Below are positions 2,111 to 18,567 of a stretch of DNA of 32,000 nucleotides, in pieces. The notes under the pieces were generated by a model. That model was not told the origin of the DNA. It ran no database searches and saw only the letters and a list, made by a program, of their open reading frames with translations. Source of the stretch: Candidatus Saccharimonadota bacterium (GTDB taxonomy: Bacteria; Pseudomonadota; Gammaproteobacteria; Enterobacterales; Enterobacteriaceae); NCBI RefSeq assembly GCF_014857065.1, contig NZ_CP046533.1, positions 90,001 through 122,000 on the forward strand, in the 5' to 3' direction. The translations under genes and the position numbers were made by a program. How positions within the stretch are numbered: position 1 is the stretch's first letter; each line of letters opens with the position of its first letter.

Positions 2111-3349
2111 TTATTTTGATAATTTATTGAGAAGATGTTGTGTTTTTATTAAACTACTTATTAATTTGTCAATATCTTCTTTATTATTATACATTGCTAA
2201 TGAAATACGACACATACTTGATGTGCGAAAATAATTCATTAATGGTATTGCGCAATGATGTCCAGTGCGTATGGCAATGCCGTCTTGATCTAAAAAACTT
2301 CCAATGTCGTAAGGATGATGTTTACCAATATTAAAAGATAGAACTCCTATACGGCTTGTAGGACCATAAATTATTATGTTAGGGATATTTTCTAATTCTT
2401 TTGTTGCATAATACATCAATTGAAGCTCGTAATTATAGATTTTATCTAAACCTATGCTATTAATGTATTTAATGGCAGCATCTAAGCCTAAAATATTGGC
2501 TATATTTGCTGAACCAGCTTCAAATTTCCAAGGAGCATCTACAAAAGTTGTACCTTTAGTTAAACTAACCGTTTTGACAATACCTCCTCCAACTTCCCAT
2601 GGGGGCATACTTTGTAATAAGTGTTTTTTGCCATAAAGAACACCTACACCATTAGGTCCATAAAGTTTATGACTAGAAAATACATAAAAATCGCAGTTTA
2701 TTTTCTGTACATCTACTTTGGTATGCACTATGCCTTGTGCACCGTCTACTAATACTACAGTATCTTTTATATTACGTATCAAATGTATAATTTCAGATAA
2801 AGGATTTAAAGTACCAATAACGTTAGAAAGTTGAGTAATAGCAACTAATTTAGTTCGTTCATTAATTAAATTCGGTAATTGATTAATATCTAACATGCCA
2901 CTTAATGTTAGAGGAATATATTTAATAATTAATCTTTTCTTTTTAGCTAACATTTGCCAAGGAACAATATTAGAATGATGTTCCATTTCAGTAATAAGAA
3001 TGTTATCACCTTTTTTAAAATACTTTCCTCCATAGCTATTAGCCACTAAGTTGATTCCTTCAGTAGCACTTTTGGTAAAAACAATTTCTTCTAATGAAGA
3101 TGCATGAATAAATGTTGCTATTTGTTTTCTTGCTTGCTCCATTAATTCAGTGGCTTGTCTGCTTAGTTGATATATACTACGATGAGCGGTTGCATATCTG
3201 TTGCGATAGAAATTATTCTGACAATTAATAACGTCATTAGGTTTTTGAGCACTTGCAGCACTGTCCAAGTAAATCAATGGTTTATTATTTATTAATTTAG
3301 TTAATACAGGAAAATTAGATCTAATTTTTACTATGGGATATTCGTTCAT
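2111..3349 (-). CDS. sufS: cysteine desulfurase SufS (PLP-dependent)
   Basis: 412 aa. Contains the SSHKLYGP (PLP lysine) and RTGHHCAIPLM (active-site Cys) motifs, as in E. coli SufS. Lies between sufD and sufE. Confidence 0.95.
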   Translation of the reverse strand: MNEYPIVKIRSNFPVLTKLINNKPLIYLDSAASAQKPNDVINCQNNFYRNRYATAHRSIYQLSRQATELMEQARKQIATFIHASSLEEIVFTKSATEGINLVANSYGGKYFKKGDNILITEMEHHSNIVPWQMLAKKKRLIIKYIPLTLSGMLDINQLPNLINERTKLVAITQLSNVIGTLNPLSEIIHLIRNIKDTVVLVDGAQGIVHTKVDVQKINCDFYVFSSHKLYGPNGVGVLYGKKHLLQSMPPWEVGGGIVKTVSLTKGTTFVDAPWKFEAGSANIANILGLDAAIKYINSIGLDKIYNYELQLMYYATKELENIPNIIIYGPTSRIGVLSFNIGKHHPYDIGSFLDQDGIAIRTGHHCAIPLMNYFRTSSMCRISLAMYNNKEDIDKLISSLIKTQHLLNKLSK

Positions 3350-3361
3350 TTTATAAACCTT

Positions 3362-4633
3362 TTATAGAATATTTATAATACGTTTAGCAATAACATCTTC
3401 AATAACTTTATTTTTAATTTTACCAAGTATTTCAATAGTAAATGCATAAATAATCATCTTTATAGCATTTTCGTATGCAATACCTCGCGTGCATAAATAA
3501 AAAATTTGATTCTTATCAGGATTGCCAATAGTAACACCATGACTACATTTAACATCATCAGCATAAATTTCTAATTGTGGTTCGCTTTTAATTTTTGCAT
3601 TACCATTCAAAAACAAATTATTATTTAACATTAATCCATCAGTTTTAATTGCATGCTTAGCAACTTTAATAAAACCATTAAATACACTTTGACTATCATC
3701 AGAAACAATTGTTTTATGCAATTGTCTGCTTATGCAACATTGTTTATTATGCTCTAAATAAGTAAATATGCTACTAATATCTCTTTGCTTAAGAAATGCT
3801 AAACTATTAATTGATAAAGATGATCCTTTACCGTTTAATTTTACGCTTGTTTGATGATGATTAAATCTAGCGCCTAAAATAATAAATAAATTGCTTTTTA
3901 CTTTAGTTTCGCATCCAATATGTATATCATTATGTGCTAAATGATAACTATTTTGGTTTTCAAAAAATAGCTTAATATGATCAAATTGAGAATGATCTCC
4001 TATTACTGTATATGTACGTGCGCCGCTAAAATGACCATGAGAATCCATGCTTACGAAGTGTTCTATTACTTGACCATTAGCACCGTTTGCAATTTCGATC
4101 TGATGGTAATAATGTGAAGTCGCCAATGTATTTTTATTTTTATTACCTGAATTAATATGTAATAAATATAACGGCTTATCCGCTGTTATATCAGCAGGTA
4201 AGAAAATATGAGTAATTTCATTAGCTAATGCTTCAGTTAAATGCAAAAAAAAATCCGATTGGATTGGCGACGGTAACAGTTGACGATTTATCTTTTTATT
4301 CGATATCACTTGCCATAATCCAGTATTTGTATCACTCAACAATGAAGAAAATAAGCCATTTATGAATACTAATCGATACGCATCAATATTTAAAGAAAGT
4401 TTATTTACTTTAATTATATTTATCATTTTGTCAAAGGGCGTAACAAAAGAATTAGATAAAAAATGTCCTATATAAACATTGTTCCATTTTTTGTCTTTAT
4501 GAAGCGATCTGCCAGAATCTTTTACTTTTTCCCATTGTTTATTTGCTTGAGGTGAAAGGTTTTTTTCATTTTTTTCAAATAAGATACGCCATTGTTGTAA
4601 TGCATGTTCATTATTGTTTATTAAAGCATCCAT
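3362..4633 (-). CDS. sufD: Fe-S cluster assembly protein SufD
   Basis: The C-terminal region QLEIYADDVKCSHGVTIG...QIFYLCTRGI matches E. coli SufD. I place the start at ATG 4633 (MDALINNNEHALQQW, compare E. coli MAGLPNSSNALQQW), which gives 423 aa as in E. coli. The ORF-track start at 4648 is a TTG five codons upstream. Either start overlaps the sufC 3' end. Confidence 0.9.
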   Translation of the reverse strand: MDALINNNEHALQQWRILFEKNEKNLSPQANKQWEKVKDSGRSLHKDKKWNNVYIGHFLSNSFVTPFDKMINIIKVNKLSLNIDAYRLVFINGLFSSLLSDTNTGLWQVISNKKINRQLLPSPIQSDFFLHLTEALANEITHIFLPADITADKPLYLLHINSGNKNKNTLATSHYYHQIEIANGANGQVIEHFVSMDSHGHFSGARTYTVIGDHSQFDHIKLFFENQNSYHLAHNDIHIGCETKVKSNLFIILGARFNHHQTSVKLNGKGSSLSINSLAFLKQRDISSIFTYLEHNKQCCISRQLHKTIVSDDSQSVFNGFIKVAKHAIKTDGLMLNNNLFLNGNAKIKSEPQLEIYADDVKCSHGVTIGNPDKNQIFYLCTRGIAYENAIKMIIYAFTIEILGKIKNKVIEDVIAKRIINIL

Positions 4634-8803: not shown

Positions 8804-11200
8804 TTATCTTTTTAAAGAGGCTTTAAATTTTAATTTTAAACGTTGTAAGCATTTTTCAAGCATTTTTGTAATTTCAATTTCTTTTAAAGTATAATTATTA
8901 TTATATAAAAATAAACTAATAGCTAAACTTTTGAATTCTTTATTTATACCGATACCACGGTATATATCAAATAATTTTATATCAATTAATTCTTTTCCTA
9001 AAGATTTTTTGCATTCATTAATAATATCTATAGCAGCAATCTGTTCCGAAACTATGATTGCAATGTCTCTACGATTAATAGGAAATCGAGGAATGTCTTT
9101 TATTTTGCTAGTTCTATATTCAGCTATTTTATCCCAAATAATTTCAAAAACCAATGTATGATTCCTTAAATTCAATTTTTTTTCTAAGGAAGGATGTATC
9201 ATCCCAATACATCCAATATATTCATTTTGAAAAAATATACTAGCACTTTGTCCTGGATGTAATGCCGGATTGATTTGTATTTTAAATTCTACATCATTTA
9301 ATTTACCAAGCATGTCCAGAATTGCTTCAACATCACCTTTTATATCATAAAAATCCATAATATTATTTTTTTTGCAATCCCAATGTTCTTCATATCGCAC
9401 TCCTGTTATAATGCCCGATAATGTCAAATATTGATCAACTTTCATATATGCCATTTTATTTGGTGAAAAAGACATTCCACTTTCAAATAAACGTATTTGC
9501 TGTTGTTGACGATTTTGATTATAAATAACTGTATTTACAAGACCACTCCATAAAGATAAACGCATAACAGACATTTCTTTTGTAATAGGGTTTATAATTC
9601 GTAATGCTACTTGTTCAGGATGCAGCAAATTTTGAATTTTTGGATCTACAAAGCTATAAGTAATCACTTCTTGATAATCACGATCTACAAGTAAATTTTT
9701 TATTCTTAATAAAGGTAATTTATTTTTATTAATATTGTATTTCGTTTGTAGCGCCGTATATATTGAAGTACTAGGAAGCATATTATAGCCATAAATTCTA
9801 ATTATTTCTTCTATTAAATCTTCTTCTAATTTTAAATCGAAACGCCAAGTAGGTGTTAATACTTTCCAACCATCCTTAAAACGTTTTATGATGCATCCAG
9901 TGCGTTTTAAAATTTCATGTACTTTATTATCTGAAATAAAATAACCGATAAATTTTTTTATTTTATTACGTCTTAAAATTATAAAATTTTTTTTGGTTAT
10001 TGTTTTTTCATTTATTAAATTTATTACTGGTCCAGGATATCCTCCACAAATTTTAATTAAAAAATATGTGACACGTTCAATAGCTAATTTGATTAAAGTA
10101 GGATCTATTCCTCTTTCATAATAGTGTGAGGAAAAAGAATAATCTAAATTATATTGTTTAGTTTTACCTATAATAAAAGATGGATGAAAAACAGCGCATT
10201 CCAATAAAATATTACACGTTGATGAATCAATAATTGAATTTTCTCCATTTAAAATACCTGCTAAAGCTAATGGTTGTTTTGCATCTGCTATTATTAATGT
10301 ATCTGTGTTAATATTTATTAAGATATCTTTGGGTACTTTTATAGTTTCATGTTGATGAGCCAAACGTACGCAAATTCCTCCATGTATCTTATCTAAATTA
10401 AATATATTTATAGGACAACCTAATTCTAAAATAACGTAATTACTTATATCTGTTATTGGATTAACAAAGCAGATTCCACTTTTTCTTAATTTTTCACGCA
10501 TCCATAATGGAATGCGAACAGTATTATCAATACCTTTGATGATTCTACTTAAATAATAAGGGCATGCATTAGGTTCTTCAATTTTAATTAACAATGTATC
10601 ATTAAGAGTTGGTATTACGAAATTTGTTTTTGGTTGTTTTAAAGATGTTTTATTAATTATTGATAAATCACGAGCAATACCATATAATCCAAAACAATCA
10701 GCTCGGTTTATAGGGATATTTATATCAAGAATGTTATCATCTAATTTTAAATAATCTTTAAAATTTGACCCTATAGGCGCATCTTTAGGTAACGTTGTTA
10801 TGTCAATATCATTGTAAACAATACCCAGTTTTTTAAAAGAACATAATGACCATTCAGGTAGTAATCCGTATTTATTATTATTTTTTTCCTTCTTATTACC
10901 GAGTGCTATTGAATCTGATTTTGCTACTATAATTTTTGAATTTACACAACAATTGTCTATATTAGATATTATACTCAAGTTATTTATGTCACCGATATCT
11001 ACTGTTAATATCCACGCGTCAGCAACATCAGGATGTTTTATGCGTTTTAAGACCAAACCAATTATTATCTTACTAAAATAATTAAAATAAGGAGTTATTA
11101 AATTAGTTTTTAATCCTGCCATGGTCAATTTTTCAGTTAGCATATTACTGTTAATATCTAAATTAATCCATTCTCGTAACCAAAATTCACTAAATTTCAC
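8804..11200 (-). CDS. pheT: phenylalanine--tRNA ligase beta subunit
   Basis: 798 aa. GTG start (11198-11200) at the position of E. coli Met1 (MKFSEFWLREW versus MKFSELWLREW). Colinear throughout. Confidence 0.95.
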   Translation of the reverse strand: MKFSEFWLREWINLDINSNMLTEKLTMAGLKTNLITPYFNYFSKIIIGLVLKRIKHPDVADAWILTVDIGDINNLSIISNIDNCCVNSKIIVAKSDSIALGNKKEKNNNKYGLLPEWSLCSFKKLGIVYNDIDITTLPKDAPIGSNFKDYLKLDDNILDINIPINRADCFGLYGIARDLSIINKTSLKQPKTNFVIPTLNDTLLIKIEEPNACPYYLSRIIKGIDNTVRIPLWMREKLRKSGICFVNPITDISNYVILELGCPINIFNLDKIHGGICVRLAHQHETIKVPKDILININTDTLIIADAKQPLALAGILNGENSIIDSSTCNILLECAVFHPSFIIGKTKQYNLDYSFSSHYYERGIDPTLIKLAIERVTYFLIKICGGYPGPVINLINEKTITKKNFIILRRNKIKKFIGYFISDNKVHEILKRTGCIIKRFKDGWKVLTPTWRFDLKLEEDLIEEIIRIYGYNMLPSTSIYTALQTKYNINKNKLPLLRIKNLLVDRDYQEVITYSFVDPKIQNLLHPEQVALRIINPITKEMSVMRLSLWSGLVNTVIYNQNRQQQQIRLFESGMSFSPNKMAYMKVDQYLTLSGIITGVRYEEHWDCKKNNIMDFYDIKGDVEAILDMLGKLNDVEFKIQINPALHPGQSASIFFQNEYIGCIGMIHPSLEKKLNLRNHTLVFEIIWDKIAEYRTSKIKDIPRFPINRRDIAIIVSEQIAAIDIINECKKSLGKELIDIKLFDIYRGIGINKEFKSLAISLFLYNNNYTLKEIEITKMLEKCLQRLKLKFKASLKR

Positions 11201-13103: not shown

Positions 13104-13643
13104 TTATTTTTTTTTAGGAAGCAAAATCATAATTAATTGCTTGCCTTCAATTTTATCAGAAATATATTCAATTATTGATATATGTTCTAAGTCTTTACGA
13201 ATACGATTTAATATTTCAAAACCTATTTGTTGGTGAATTATTTCTCCTCCACGAAATCTTAAAGTTATTTTTATTTTATCACCATCGTTAAGGAAACGTA
13301 TTGAATGACGTAACTTCACTTGATAATCAGCTTCTTCAGTTCCTGGTCTAAATTTTATTTCTTTAACTTGAATAATTTTTTGTTTTTTTCTTTGTTCTTT
13401 AAAAGATTTATTTTTTTCATAAAGAAATTTTCCGTAGTTCATTAAACGACATACAGGAGGTAAAGAACTAGAACTAACTTCAACCAAATCCACTCCGGCT
13501 GTTTGAGCTCTCTTAAGAGCTTCATATAAACTAACGATACCAATTTGATTACCATTTATATCTGTTAATCTTATTTCATTAGCACGAATGTCTTGATTAA
13601 TACGATTAGGGCGTATCAGCTGATTTTTTTTGCTACCTTTAAT
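13104..13643 (-). CDS. infC: translation initiation factor IF-3, ATT start codon
   Basis: The ORF track shows only the part from an internal Met (129 aa). The frame continues upstream as (ATT)[57 protein letters not shown]. This aligns with E. coli IF3 [39 protein letters not shown]. ATT lies at 13641-13643 and GGAGGAG 7 nt upstream, inside the thrS 3' end. The result is 179 aa, against 180 in E. coli. Confidence 0.9.
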
Positions 13644-13646
13644 AAA

Positions 13647-14861
13647 TTACTCCTCCAGTTGATTAAGATTGTAATTTTTAATTTCACATAATACTTTTTT
13701 TATAAATGTATTAATGTCATAATGTCCTAATGTTTTCCCGCGAAATGTACGTACGGATACTTTTTTTATATTCATTTCTTCATTACCACAAATTAACATA
13801 TAAGGTACACGACATAAAGTATGTTCCCTAATTTTAAAATTTATTTTTTCATTTCTTAAATCCAATTTTACTCTAATATTTTTTTTTGACATTTTATTTG
13901 CTAATTTTGAAACATATTTTGACTGTTTTGAAGTAATATTCATTAAAACTACCTGTATAGGAGCTAACCAAGTTGGATAAAAACCAGAATATTCTTCTGT
14001 TAAGATACCTATAAAGCGCTCGATAGATCCTAAAATAGCTCTATGAATCATTATTGGCACAACACGTCTGTTATTTTTATTGATATAAAAAGCGTTTAAT
14101 CGACGTGGAAGAGAAAAATCTAGTTGTACCGTACCACACTGCCAATTACGATTTAAACAATCAAGTAAAGTAAATTCAATTTTAGGACCATAAAATGCTC
14201 CCTCAAATTTTTGATACTCAAACGATACACCAATTTCTGTTAAGATGCTAGATAAATTATTCTCAGCCAGATCCCATATTGAATCGTCTCCAATACGTTT
14301 TTCTGGTCGAGTGGAAAGTTTCACTGAAATTTTATTAAATCCAAACGTACCATACACATCATACATCATTTTTATACAGTTTTTAATTTCATCATGTATT
14401 TGAGATTTAGTGCAGAAAATATGAGCATCATCTTGAATAAAACTTTGAACTCTCATTAATCCATGTAAGGATCCAGAAGGTTCATTGCGATGACAACTAC
14501 CAAATTCTGCTATACGTAGCGGTAAATCTTTATAAGATCTTATCTTATGGTTAAATATTTGAACATGTCCAGGGCAATTCATAGGTTTTATACAATACGT
14601 ATGATTTTCTGACATAGTAGAGAATATATGTTCTGCATAATTTTCCCAATGACCCGTTTTTTTCCATAAAACATGATCAATCATTATAGGTGTTCGCACT
14701 TCCTGGTATTCATAATTTTTTAGTTTTGTTCTTATAAATTTTTCTAATTCATGTAAAATAATCCAACCATTATTATGCCAAAAAATCATTCCAGGTGCTT
14801 CTTCCTGTATATGATAGAGATCTAATTGTTTATTTAGTTTACGATGATCACCAATATCCAT
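13647..14861 (-). CDS. thrS: threonine--tRNA ligase, catalytic core plus anticodon-binding domain only (no TGS or editing domains)
   Basis: 404 aa. [33 protein letters not shown] aligns with E. coli ThrRS from about residue 239 (..[31 protein letters not shown]) and stays colinear to the identical C-terminal QLEE. Zinc and catalytic motifs are retained: [26 protein letters not shown]. There is an in-frame TAA 10 codons upstream of the ATG, and only 244 bp separate the ATG from the kdsA stop. Confidence 0.9.
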
Positions 14862-14935
14862 TTTGATCGTAAGTATAAAAATTGTATTTTAGTGATTTAG
14901 TTATTAGTTTTGATATTATACATGAATAGTTAGAT

Positions 14936-14989
14936 AATATTAATTTTTCTTATAAATTTATTAATAAATTTATAAGAAAAATTAATATT
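14936..14989. repeat. 54-bp perfect palindrome (27-bp arms, no spacer)
   Basis: AATATTAATTTTTCTTATAAATTTATT|AATAAATTTATAAGAAAAATTAATATT. All 27 pairs checked by hand and complementary. Symmetry stops at 14935/14990. Lies between the kdsA stop and the thrS start. Confidence 0.95.
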
Positions 14990-15105
14990 TAGTGATTCTA
15001 GTATGTTTGAAATTTTGATGTCTTGGCAACCCTTAATTTTTAAGGCAAAATTACAAATCTTTAAGGCATCTGTTCTTAATTTTAGATACGGATCACAAAT
15101 GTTTA

Positions 15106-15966
<861 letters not shown>

Positions 15967-18515: not shown

Positions 18516-18567
18516 TTAACAAACATGAATTTGATTCTAACATTAGAATCAAATTCATGTTTGTTAA
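18516..18567. repeat. 52-nt perfect inverted repeat (25-bp arms, 2-nt centre)
   Basis: TTAACAAACATGAATTTGATTCTAA-CA-TTAGAATCAAATTCATGTTTGTTAA. All 25 pairs checked by hand. Lies in the 531-bp divergent prfA/ispE spacer and ends 59 nt upstream of the ispE ATG. Confidence 0.95.

Follow-up and report, generated by a model that had tools for sequence, protein, structure and literature searches.

The Blochmannia endosymbiont of the ant Colobopsis nipponica encodes a threonyl-tRNA synthetase (ThrRS) that consists of the catalytic and anticodon-binding domains and little else. The gene, thrS, lies in a 32,000-nt stretch of the genome, hereafter called the window (NZ_CP046533.1, positions 90,001 to 122,000, forward strand; the complete genome, CP046533, is 728,116 bp in length and was announced in PMC8086219). 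Comparison of sequences makes it highly probable that thrS specifies the sole functional ThrRS of this symbiont, that the N-terminus was lost in place, and that the shortened enzyme is the final stage of a relaxation of ThrRS proofreading that is general among obligate insect and leech endosymbionts.

The thrS gene is an unbroken open reading frame (ORF) of 404 codons with an ATG start. At 100% identity, its product matches an NCBI entry, 'threonine--tRNA ligase [Blochmannia endosymbiont of Colobopsis nipponica]', and among protein-database matches it is the only thrS product listed for this symbiont, a result that pertains to a protein search and not to a genome scan. The protein scores 552.6 bits against TIGR00418, the NCBIfam equivalog for thrS (cutoff 383.65), which places it in the threonyl-tRNA synthetase family of class IIa aminoacyl-tRNA synthetases (aaRS); the match covers only profile positions 172–562 of 565. 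The Pfam matches are confined to tRNA-synt_2b (residues 83–291) and HGTP_anticodon (303–392), and neither TGS (PF02824) nor tRNA_SAD (PF07973) is matched at E ≤ 0.1. Residues 5–404 align with residues 243–642 of Escherichia coli ThrRS (PDB 1qf6; E about 1e-200), and therefore the initiator methionine corresponds to approximately E. coli residue 239. The TGS and editing domains are missing, and with them the greater part of the linker helix. Thus the protein departs from the canonical bacterial order of N1, N2, catalytic and anticodon-binding domains in having neither the N1 TGS domain nor the N2 editing domain with its HxxxH and DxCxxxH motifs. A first-pass annotation of this DNA had described a 404-codon ORF that aligns from about E. 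coli residue 239 to the shared C-terminal QLEE and has lost the TGS and editing domains, and the Pfam, TIGR00418 and 1qf6 alignments agree with it on each point. The span it gave, 13647–15105, comprises the ORF plus the adjoining spacer, and the minus strand was left unstated.

The motifs CPGH, DDAHIF and HRAILGS, named in the same annotation as evidence of an intact zinc site and intact class II motifs, are all present, as is the C-terminal QLEE, and a residue-by-residue check agrees. The check included the ThrRS of a sister symbiont, the Blochmannia of Colobopsis obliquus (CP010049), whose genome was sequenced by another laboratory. This second enzyme has 414 amino acids and the same two domains, and it begins with MDARDHRK, where the C. 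nipponica protein begins with MDIGDHRK. Its greater length is at the other end, where the thrS stop codon has been lost and 10 extra codons are read into infC (L001 11218–11245). In E. coli numbering, both Colobopsis enzymes conserve the zinc ligands C334, H385 and H511 together with D383, the motif 2 residues R363, E365, R375, F379 and Q381, the motif 3 residues G516, S517 and R520, and Y462, K465, Q479, T482 and Q484. N575, R583, E600 and R609 are conserved on the anticodon side. These residues presumably have the roles in zinc binding, in the class II motifs and in anticodon contact that we take from the E. coli structures. The zinc ligands and motifs 2 and 3 reach slightly past the Pfam core range.

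Selection on the gene was estimated from the same pair. The two thrS products are 81.4% identical, with dN = 0.112, dS = 0.844 and a ratio of nonsynonymous to synonymous substitution (dN/dS) of 0.13. For 18 neighbouring genes the dN/dS values lie between 0.07 and 0.40, with identities of 54 to 89%, and the thrS ratio is among the lowest. Strong purifying selection has therefore acted on the truncated thrS ever since the Colobopsis symbionts diverged from one another. An ORF that is intact in two species, with its catalytic residues kept and a dN/dS of 0.13, does not have the marks of a pseudogene, and by these sequence criteria thrS encodes a functional ThrRS, as the first-pass annotation had proposed. 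With no editing domain in cis, no second ThrRS in the protein search and evident maintenance by selection, it can be termed a natural minimalist ThrRS.

A gene cut short beside an AT-rich spacer might instead reflect an assembly deletion, or might be a decaying remnant in a cell whose ThrRS activity comes from elsewhere. Such an explanation is highly improbable. It is raised by the Logan re-assembly of the same reads (SRR12768939), which breaks between kdsA and thrS, in the middle of a perfect 54-bp palindrome of the spacer (14936–14989). One Logan contig starts 104 nt 5' of the thrS ATG, a second ends 146 nt past the kdsA stop, and both end in one 30-mer, in opposite orientations, inside the palindrome. 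A 30-mer is k-1 for k = 31, a value that is an assumption about the Logan assembler, and we take the break to be a de Bruijn graph effect at a perfect palindrome, not missing sequence. Over these 104 nt the contig and the window are identical, so that the stop codons directly 5' of the ATG, which occur in all frames, are confirmed independently. Since thrS of the sister genome is truncated in the same way and starts at the same position, the loss goes back to an ancestor of both Colobopsis symbionts and is not an assembly artefact. The idea of a dead gene is further contradicted by the low dN/dS, by the integrity of every catalytic residue checked and by the lack of another thrS for the C. nipponica symbiont in the protein search. 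An artefact at the Logan break was accordingly rejected, and an assembly deletion at this locus, which the first-pass annotation had wished to exclude, is judged unlikely.

The region upstream offers no source for the missing N-terminus. In the kdsA-thrS spacer (14862–15105) each of the three forward frames contains stop codons, and a TAA lies in frame with the ATG, 10 codons ahead of it. When residues 1–250 of three full-length ThrRS proteins were compared with the 32-kb window by tblastn, the best match had E = 1.3 and none fell in the spacer. Nor was an N-terminal remnant found by tblastn in the 21-kb C. obliquus locus, including its spacer, which is 408 bp in length with 14% GC. A 59-amino acid ORF at 14930–15109 has no Pfam match. 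Alignment of the C. nipponica, C. obliquus and B. vicinus spacers by blastn and MAFFT yields only low-complexity AT matches, and the end points of the deletion are not mappable. The statement in the first-pass annotation that the 244-bp AT-rich spacer has no similarity to the ThrRS N-terminus is thus upheld.

How the truncation arose can be approached through the kdsA-thrS junction in relatives. In B. vicinus the order is prfA-prmC-kdsA, a 1303-bp spacer, a full-length thrS of 642 codons and then infC. A Logan contig from a deep-branching Blochmannia has lolB-prfA-prmC-kdsA, a 485-bp spacer, a thrS of 647 codons and then infC. Because two Blochmannia lineages with full-length thrS share the adjacency, it is older than the truncation, and the loss took place in situ. 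It had been suggested that the truncation coincides with a rearrangement junction that removed the 5' third of the gene; a rearrangement origin is rejected, as the gene order prfA-prmC-kdsA-thrS-infC also occurs with the 642- and 647-residue forms. The proposed comparison of thrS length and junction among relatives showed truncation in both Colobopsis symbionts and the same junction with full-length thrS in the two other Blochmannia lineages. All 11 ThrRS sequences recovered from the rest of the Blochmannia clade are full length (642–649 residues). In neighbour-joining (NJ) trees of the catalytic core these other Blochmannia form a clade with 100% bootstrap support and the Colobopsis pair stands separately, also with 100%; deep nodes are unsupported (40–55%).

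The probable course of events is as follows. With the kdsA-thrS junction already established, an ancestor shared by both of the sequenced Colobopsis-associated Blochmannia would have lost, in place, approximately 715 bp at the 5' end of thrS, which encoded N1/TGS, the N2 editing domain and the greater part of the linker helix. Translation would then have moved to an ATG inside the old linker, at about E. coli residue 239. Probably, as Candidatus Providencia siddallii suggests (see below), the 5' part was first inactivated, an internal start came into use, and the dead remnant was eroded and finally deleted.

Decay of ThrRS editing is not limited to the Colobopsis symbionts. The editing motifs of ThrRS are HxxxH and DxCRGPH (PMC4787780), and H73 and H77 of HxxxH and C182 and H186 of DxCxxxH were checked in related enzymes. 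The motifs are mutated in six of the 11 full-length Blochmannia-clade proteins (P0244, P0246, P0247, P0248, P0255 and P0260), where H73 is replaced by R, C, C, K, Q or N; one of the six also has H186Q and another C182Y. Buchnera ThrRS (L030) has H73Y, C182D and H186Q, and Westeberhardia ThrRS (L031) has H73K, H77Y, C182F and H186Q. The motifs are intact in B. vicinus, in lgn243/245 and in free-living relatives. The N-terminal domains of the Blochmannia clade are 31–49% identical to those of a Klebsiella protein (P0107), which itself looks aberrant in part of N2, vs 62–66% for the core. In many endosymbiont ThrRS proteins, N2 is retained but probably inactive.

Truncation at the linker also recurs. 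Many ThrRS proteins of about 400 residues that match from the first residues were found in an exhaustive representative search, many of them from metagenomes. The closest is that of the leech symbiont Candidatus Providencia siddallii, which starts at about E. coli residue 233. Its 1041-bp upstream gap, with 8% GC, contains a collinear, stop-riddled relic of N2 at L085 3414–3728, around the former HxxxH. The relic reads LKIIRYFYLLYINNKIKQIL; its score is 29.3 bits, and none of 200 shuffles exceeded 18.1. On this sequence, P. siddallii seems to be midway through the same N-terminal loss. In Candidatus Lightella neohaematopini, a louse symbiont, thrS is cut in the linker in all seven metagenome-assembled genomes (MAGs; L028, L029, L032–L036). 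These surfaced when a collection of genome contigs, one that yielded no Blochmannia genome, was scanned with the 404-residue protein. The Lightella reading frame is open for only 18–21 codons 5' of DHRK, and the three ORFs that were read out specify 407–409 amino acids (thrS ~3962–5188 in L029). No N-terminal remnant was found upstream of Lightella thrS, where the neighbour is a ydjM-like gene on the opposite strand.

Two other forms of ThrRS were encountered. In a Sodalis-like sequence on one 30,458-bp JGI contig, thrS is called as two proteins, one of 225 residues with TGS and SAD (P0004) and one of 429 residues with the core and the anticodon-binding domain (P0179); this could be a frameshift, a sequencing error or an early stage of a split. 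MAGs of the DPANN archaea (Woesearchaeota and Pacearchaeota; L073–L080) have a bacterial-type ThrRS with only ~170–185 residues before the catalytic core, and these proteins probably lack TGS and keep N2.

The case for three independent truncations is built mainly on the published organismal phylogeny, on the different upstream neighbour of the Blochmannia gene, and on differences in start position and in stage of decay. Blochmannia is monophyletic, and Lightella groups with Puchtella (PMC9376444 for Lightella). An exclusive grouping of the three truncated lineages receives 0–1.5% bootstrap support in the ThrRS tree. Several observations do count against the proposed history. The single-gene NJ tree leaves the deep nodes unresolved and neither proves nor refutes independent truncations. 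Lightella and P. siddallii share the ydjM-like upstream gene, and the neighbour therefore sets apart Blochmannia only. The editing motifs are still intact in B. vicinus and in some of the other Blochmannia, so that editing, as judged from these residues, is not dispensable in every lineage. In addition, the exact length of the C. nipponica spacer hinges on the palindrome where the independent re-assembly breaks.

A related possibility is that excision of the N-terminus is not only recurrent in obligate animal endosymbionts, having happened two times or more, and probably three, at one and the same linker helix, but also selected, with cores that may have adapted (in the Colobopsis pair, for example, by the change at T380 and the unusually slow core evolution described below) to keep fidelity or to exploit Ser/Thr ambiguity. 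We regard this as doubtful, though conceivable.

What the 404-residue enzyme does in the cell can be surmised from better-studied relatives. In E. coli, the N-terminal domains are required for autorepression of thrS, in which they obstruct the ribosome, and this control is therefore expected to be gone in the Colobopsis symbionts. E. coli ThrRS without the editing domain forms a dimer and activates amino acids fully, and charges tRNA less efficiently (PMC4267643). Serine is not kept out by the zinc site of ThrRS, which excludes valine, and the ΔN form of the enzyme shows null deacylation of Ser-tRNA-Thr (PMC4787780). The yeast mitochondrial ThrRS, which naturally has no such domain, makes Ser-tRNA-Thr despite pre-transfer editing (PMC4267643). 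By analogy with the E. coli and yeast mitochondrial enzymes, the Blochmannia protein would dimerise, activate threonine on the zinc site and charge tRNA-Thr, perhaps less efficiently. Deacylation of Ser-tRNA-Thr in cis, as well as E. coli-type autorepression, would both be lost. Formation of Ser-tRNA-Thr may be expected from the behaviour of the E. coli and Anabaena ΔN enzymes (PMC4267643, PMC4787780). The Colobopsis symbiont lineage then most likely tolerates a low level of serine-for-threonine substitution, and the decay of the editing site in related full-length enzymes favours tolerated mistranslation.

Fidelity could also be preserved by a split system, with the editing module or another Ser-tRNA-Thr deacylase (AlaX-like or ThrRS-ed-like) encoded elsewhere and acting in trans. 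Such systems are known in archaea, in the Crenarchaeota (PMC4267643, PMC4787780), and the searches for a partner covered the 32-kb window of the 728-kb genome and the 21-kb C. obliquus locus only. Within these two regions tblastn detected no N1- or N2-like sequence, and no trans-editing family was present among the scanned window ORFs of at least 100 amino acids. The genomes of the two Colobopsis symbionts are collinear and static, with no inversion between them (PMC8086219), which makes relocation of a fragment unlikely. The mutated motifs in related full-length enzymes argue for weak selection on editing, and the N2 of P. siddallii decays in place and has not been relocated. A protein search with the N-terminal 241 residues of B. 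vicinus ThrRS returned only short fragments from other taxa; as the query's own parent was not listed, the result is uninformative. On balance, a separately encoded editing partner is improbable.

The truncated core might instead discriminate against serine unaided, either because its active site has been sharpened or because it hydrolyses Ser-AMP before transfer, with little mistranslation as the outcome. Tolerance of substitution remains preferred, and compensation of this kind is unlikely, although it has points in its favour. The yeast mitochondrial enzyme, also without the domain, has tRNA-dependent pre-transfer editing (PMC4267643). In the Colobopsis enzymes T380, otherwise invariant and next to motif 2, is replaced by I or L, and the catalytic cores are unusually conservative, being 72–74% identical to Sodalis-group enzymes vs 69–70% to other Blochmannia. 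Yet each residue of the threonine and zinc pocket that was checked is the same as in E. coli. The truncated lineages of Blochmannia and Lightella share only a change at L628, to V or I, which is not convincing. Moreover, pre-transfer editing alone fails to stop formation of Ser-tRNA-Thr in the enzymes studied (PMC4267643).

The closest counterpart of the Blochmannia enzyme is an engineered one. E. coli ΔN-ThrRS (residues 242–642, 401 amino acids; PDB 1EVK, 1EVL, 1FYF and 1KOG) has nearly the same boundary, the natural protein starting three residues earlier. The likeness in extent had been pointed out in the first-pass annotation, and alignment to 1EVK and 1EVL bears it out. Identity is ~69% over the full 400 residues, with no notable indels, and the zinc site and class II motifs are shared. 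Unlike the laboratory construct, the Blochmannia protein is natural, is under purifying selection and, as far as the protein search goes, is the only ThrRS of its organism. The yeast mitochondrial ThrRS (MST1) likewise consists of the catalytic core and anticodon-binding domain, has no post-transfer editing and serves a compartment with a small proteome (PMC4267643). It differs in being eukaryotic, organellar and distant (PDB 3ugq, E = 8e-83) and in having evolved together with an unusual tRNA-Thr1, and experiments have demonstrated its pre-transfer editing. Crenarchaeal ThrRS-cat is another catalytic protein without a cis-editing domain. The Crenarchaeota have a separate and unrelated editing protein, ThrRS-ed, that restores fidelity, whereas the searches of the Blochmannia window found no such partner, and a static, reduced genome would not be expected to encode one.

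Lightella and P. siddallii provide natural counterparts. Their ThrRS proteins are also cut at the linker helix, are 407–410 amino acids in length and 63–66% identical to the C. nipponica protein, and belong to Enterobacterales symbionts of blood-feeding animals. They differ from the Colobopsis Blochmannia in the ydjM-like upstream neighbour and in start positions, and P. siddallii, unlike the Colobopsis symbionts, still carries the decayed relic of N2. The same evolutionary setting and presumed outcome, with a reduced genome, relaxed selection on proofreading and a 'statistical proteome', are described for the editing-defective aaRS of host-restricted bacteria, among them the ThrRS, PheRS and LeuRS of Mycoplasma (PMC4014445, PMC10057733, PMC7373986). 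The host-restricted ThrRS cases seen in these reports are point mutations or insertions in a domain that is retained; in the Blochmannia of Colobopsis the whole of N1 and N2 is gone.

Coordinates of thrS and of the features around it are collected in Table 1.

Table 1. Features of the thrS region in the window and of the P. siddallii thrS locus
Feature	Location	Strand	Description
thrS	13647–14861	minus	N-terminally minimised threonyl-tRNA synthetase, 404 amino acids; E. coli residues 239–642
Class II catalytic core	13989–14615	minus	residues 83–291; PF00587, E = 1.3e-58
Anticodon-binding domain	13686–13955	minus	residues 303–392; PF03129, E = 5e-18
kdsA-thrS intergenic spacer	14862–15105		244 bp, 20% GC; without ThrRS N-terminal remnant
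Sigma-70-like promoter candidate	14915–14943	minus	TTAATA, 17-nt spacer, TATAAT; 10 of 12 positions matched
Perfect 54-bp palindrome	14936–14989		27-nt arms, no loop; overlaps candidate thrS -35 element
kdsA (3-deoxy-8-phosphooctulonate synthase)	15106–15957	minus	NF009109, 476 bits; upstream neighbour of thrS
infC (IF3)	13104–13643	minus	by translation; aligned to C. obliquus IF3
P. siddallii thrS	L085 4001–5233		410 amino acids; upstream gap 2960–4000

The gene order in the window is ribE, sufE-S-D-C-B-A, lplA, pheT, pheS, rplT, rpmI, infC, thrS, kdsA, prmC and prfA, followed by ispE, prs, pth, ychF, two more genes, gpmA, cpoB, pal, tolB-A-R-Q and sucD-C. GC content varies from 22 to 34%. 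The classic ATT start of infC lies 3 nt past the thrS stop (13641–13649), with GGAGGAG of the last thrS codons just upstream, and therefore the operon is intact. Shine-Dalgarno sequences are absent before thrS and before about half of the genes in the window, and the absence is therefore uninformative. The least constrained gene of the neighbourhood is pheT (8804–11200), which encodes PheRS beta, the carrier of the B3/4 editing domain; it is 59% identical to its C. obliquus counterpart with a dN/dS of 0.40, and 48% identical to that of B. vicinus.

The -10 element of the promoter candidate ends 53 nt 5' of the thrS ATG. Six promoter-like sites were found in the region, where 4.8 are expected from shuffles; the number is not above chance and the promoter is a candidate only. 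The promoter and terminator scan revealed no terminator in the spacer. An Rfam scan of the window detected no leader or operator family near thrS and only one tRNA (tRNA-Val by ARAGORN). We know of no thrS operator family in Rfam.

The 54-bp palindrome has a chance expectation of 0.34^27, about 2e-13 per position, as a rough estimate for ~80% AT. There is no equivalent in the C. obliquus spacer, and the palindrome is therefore lineage-specific. It may be a terminator, an operator or a repair scar. Two other perfect palindromes were seen. One, at 18516–18567 with 25-nt arms and a 2-nt loop, is situated in the divergent prfA-ispE intergenic region, and this region lies inside Logan contig SRR12768939_5 (placed without alignment). 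The other, with 24-nt arms, is found in C. obliquus at L001 15756–15806, within pheT.

It should be pointed out how much of this was known. A survey of editing-defective aaRS in host-restricted bacteria was reportedly made by Melnikov et al. in 2018, and it may list the Colobopsis case. Host-restricted bacteria commonly lose aaRS editing (PMC10057733, PMC7373986, citing Melnikov et al. 2018). There is no mention of thrS in the genome papers PMC8086219 and PMC4389277 or in the Lightella paper PMC9376444. The general picture, that host-restricted organisms shed aaRS proofreading, is already published and is unchanged by the Colobopsis case. What is added here is that other obligate symbionts have undergone this truncation too, and that intermediate stages of decay exist.

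These stages form a series. It runs from intact motifs (B. vicinus) to a domain that is still present but has mutated motifs (other Blochmannia, Buchnera and Westeberhardia), then to a relic (P. siddallii) and finally to clean deletion (Colobopsis Blochmannia and Lightella). The series offers a comparative system for the question of how much threonine-to-serine mistranslation a reduced proteome tolerates, and it bears on the need for the N-terminal module in efficient charging and in autoregulation in vivo. If recurrent excision at the linker proves to be selected, the intact, motif-dead, relic and deleted forms would constitute a natural series from which the in vivo worth of ThrRS editing may be judged.

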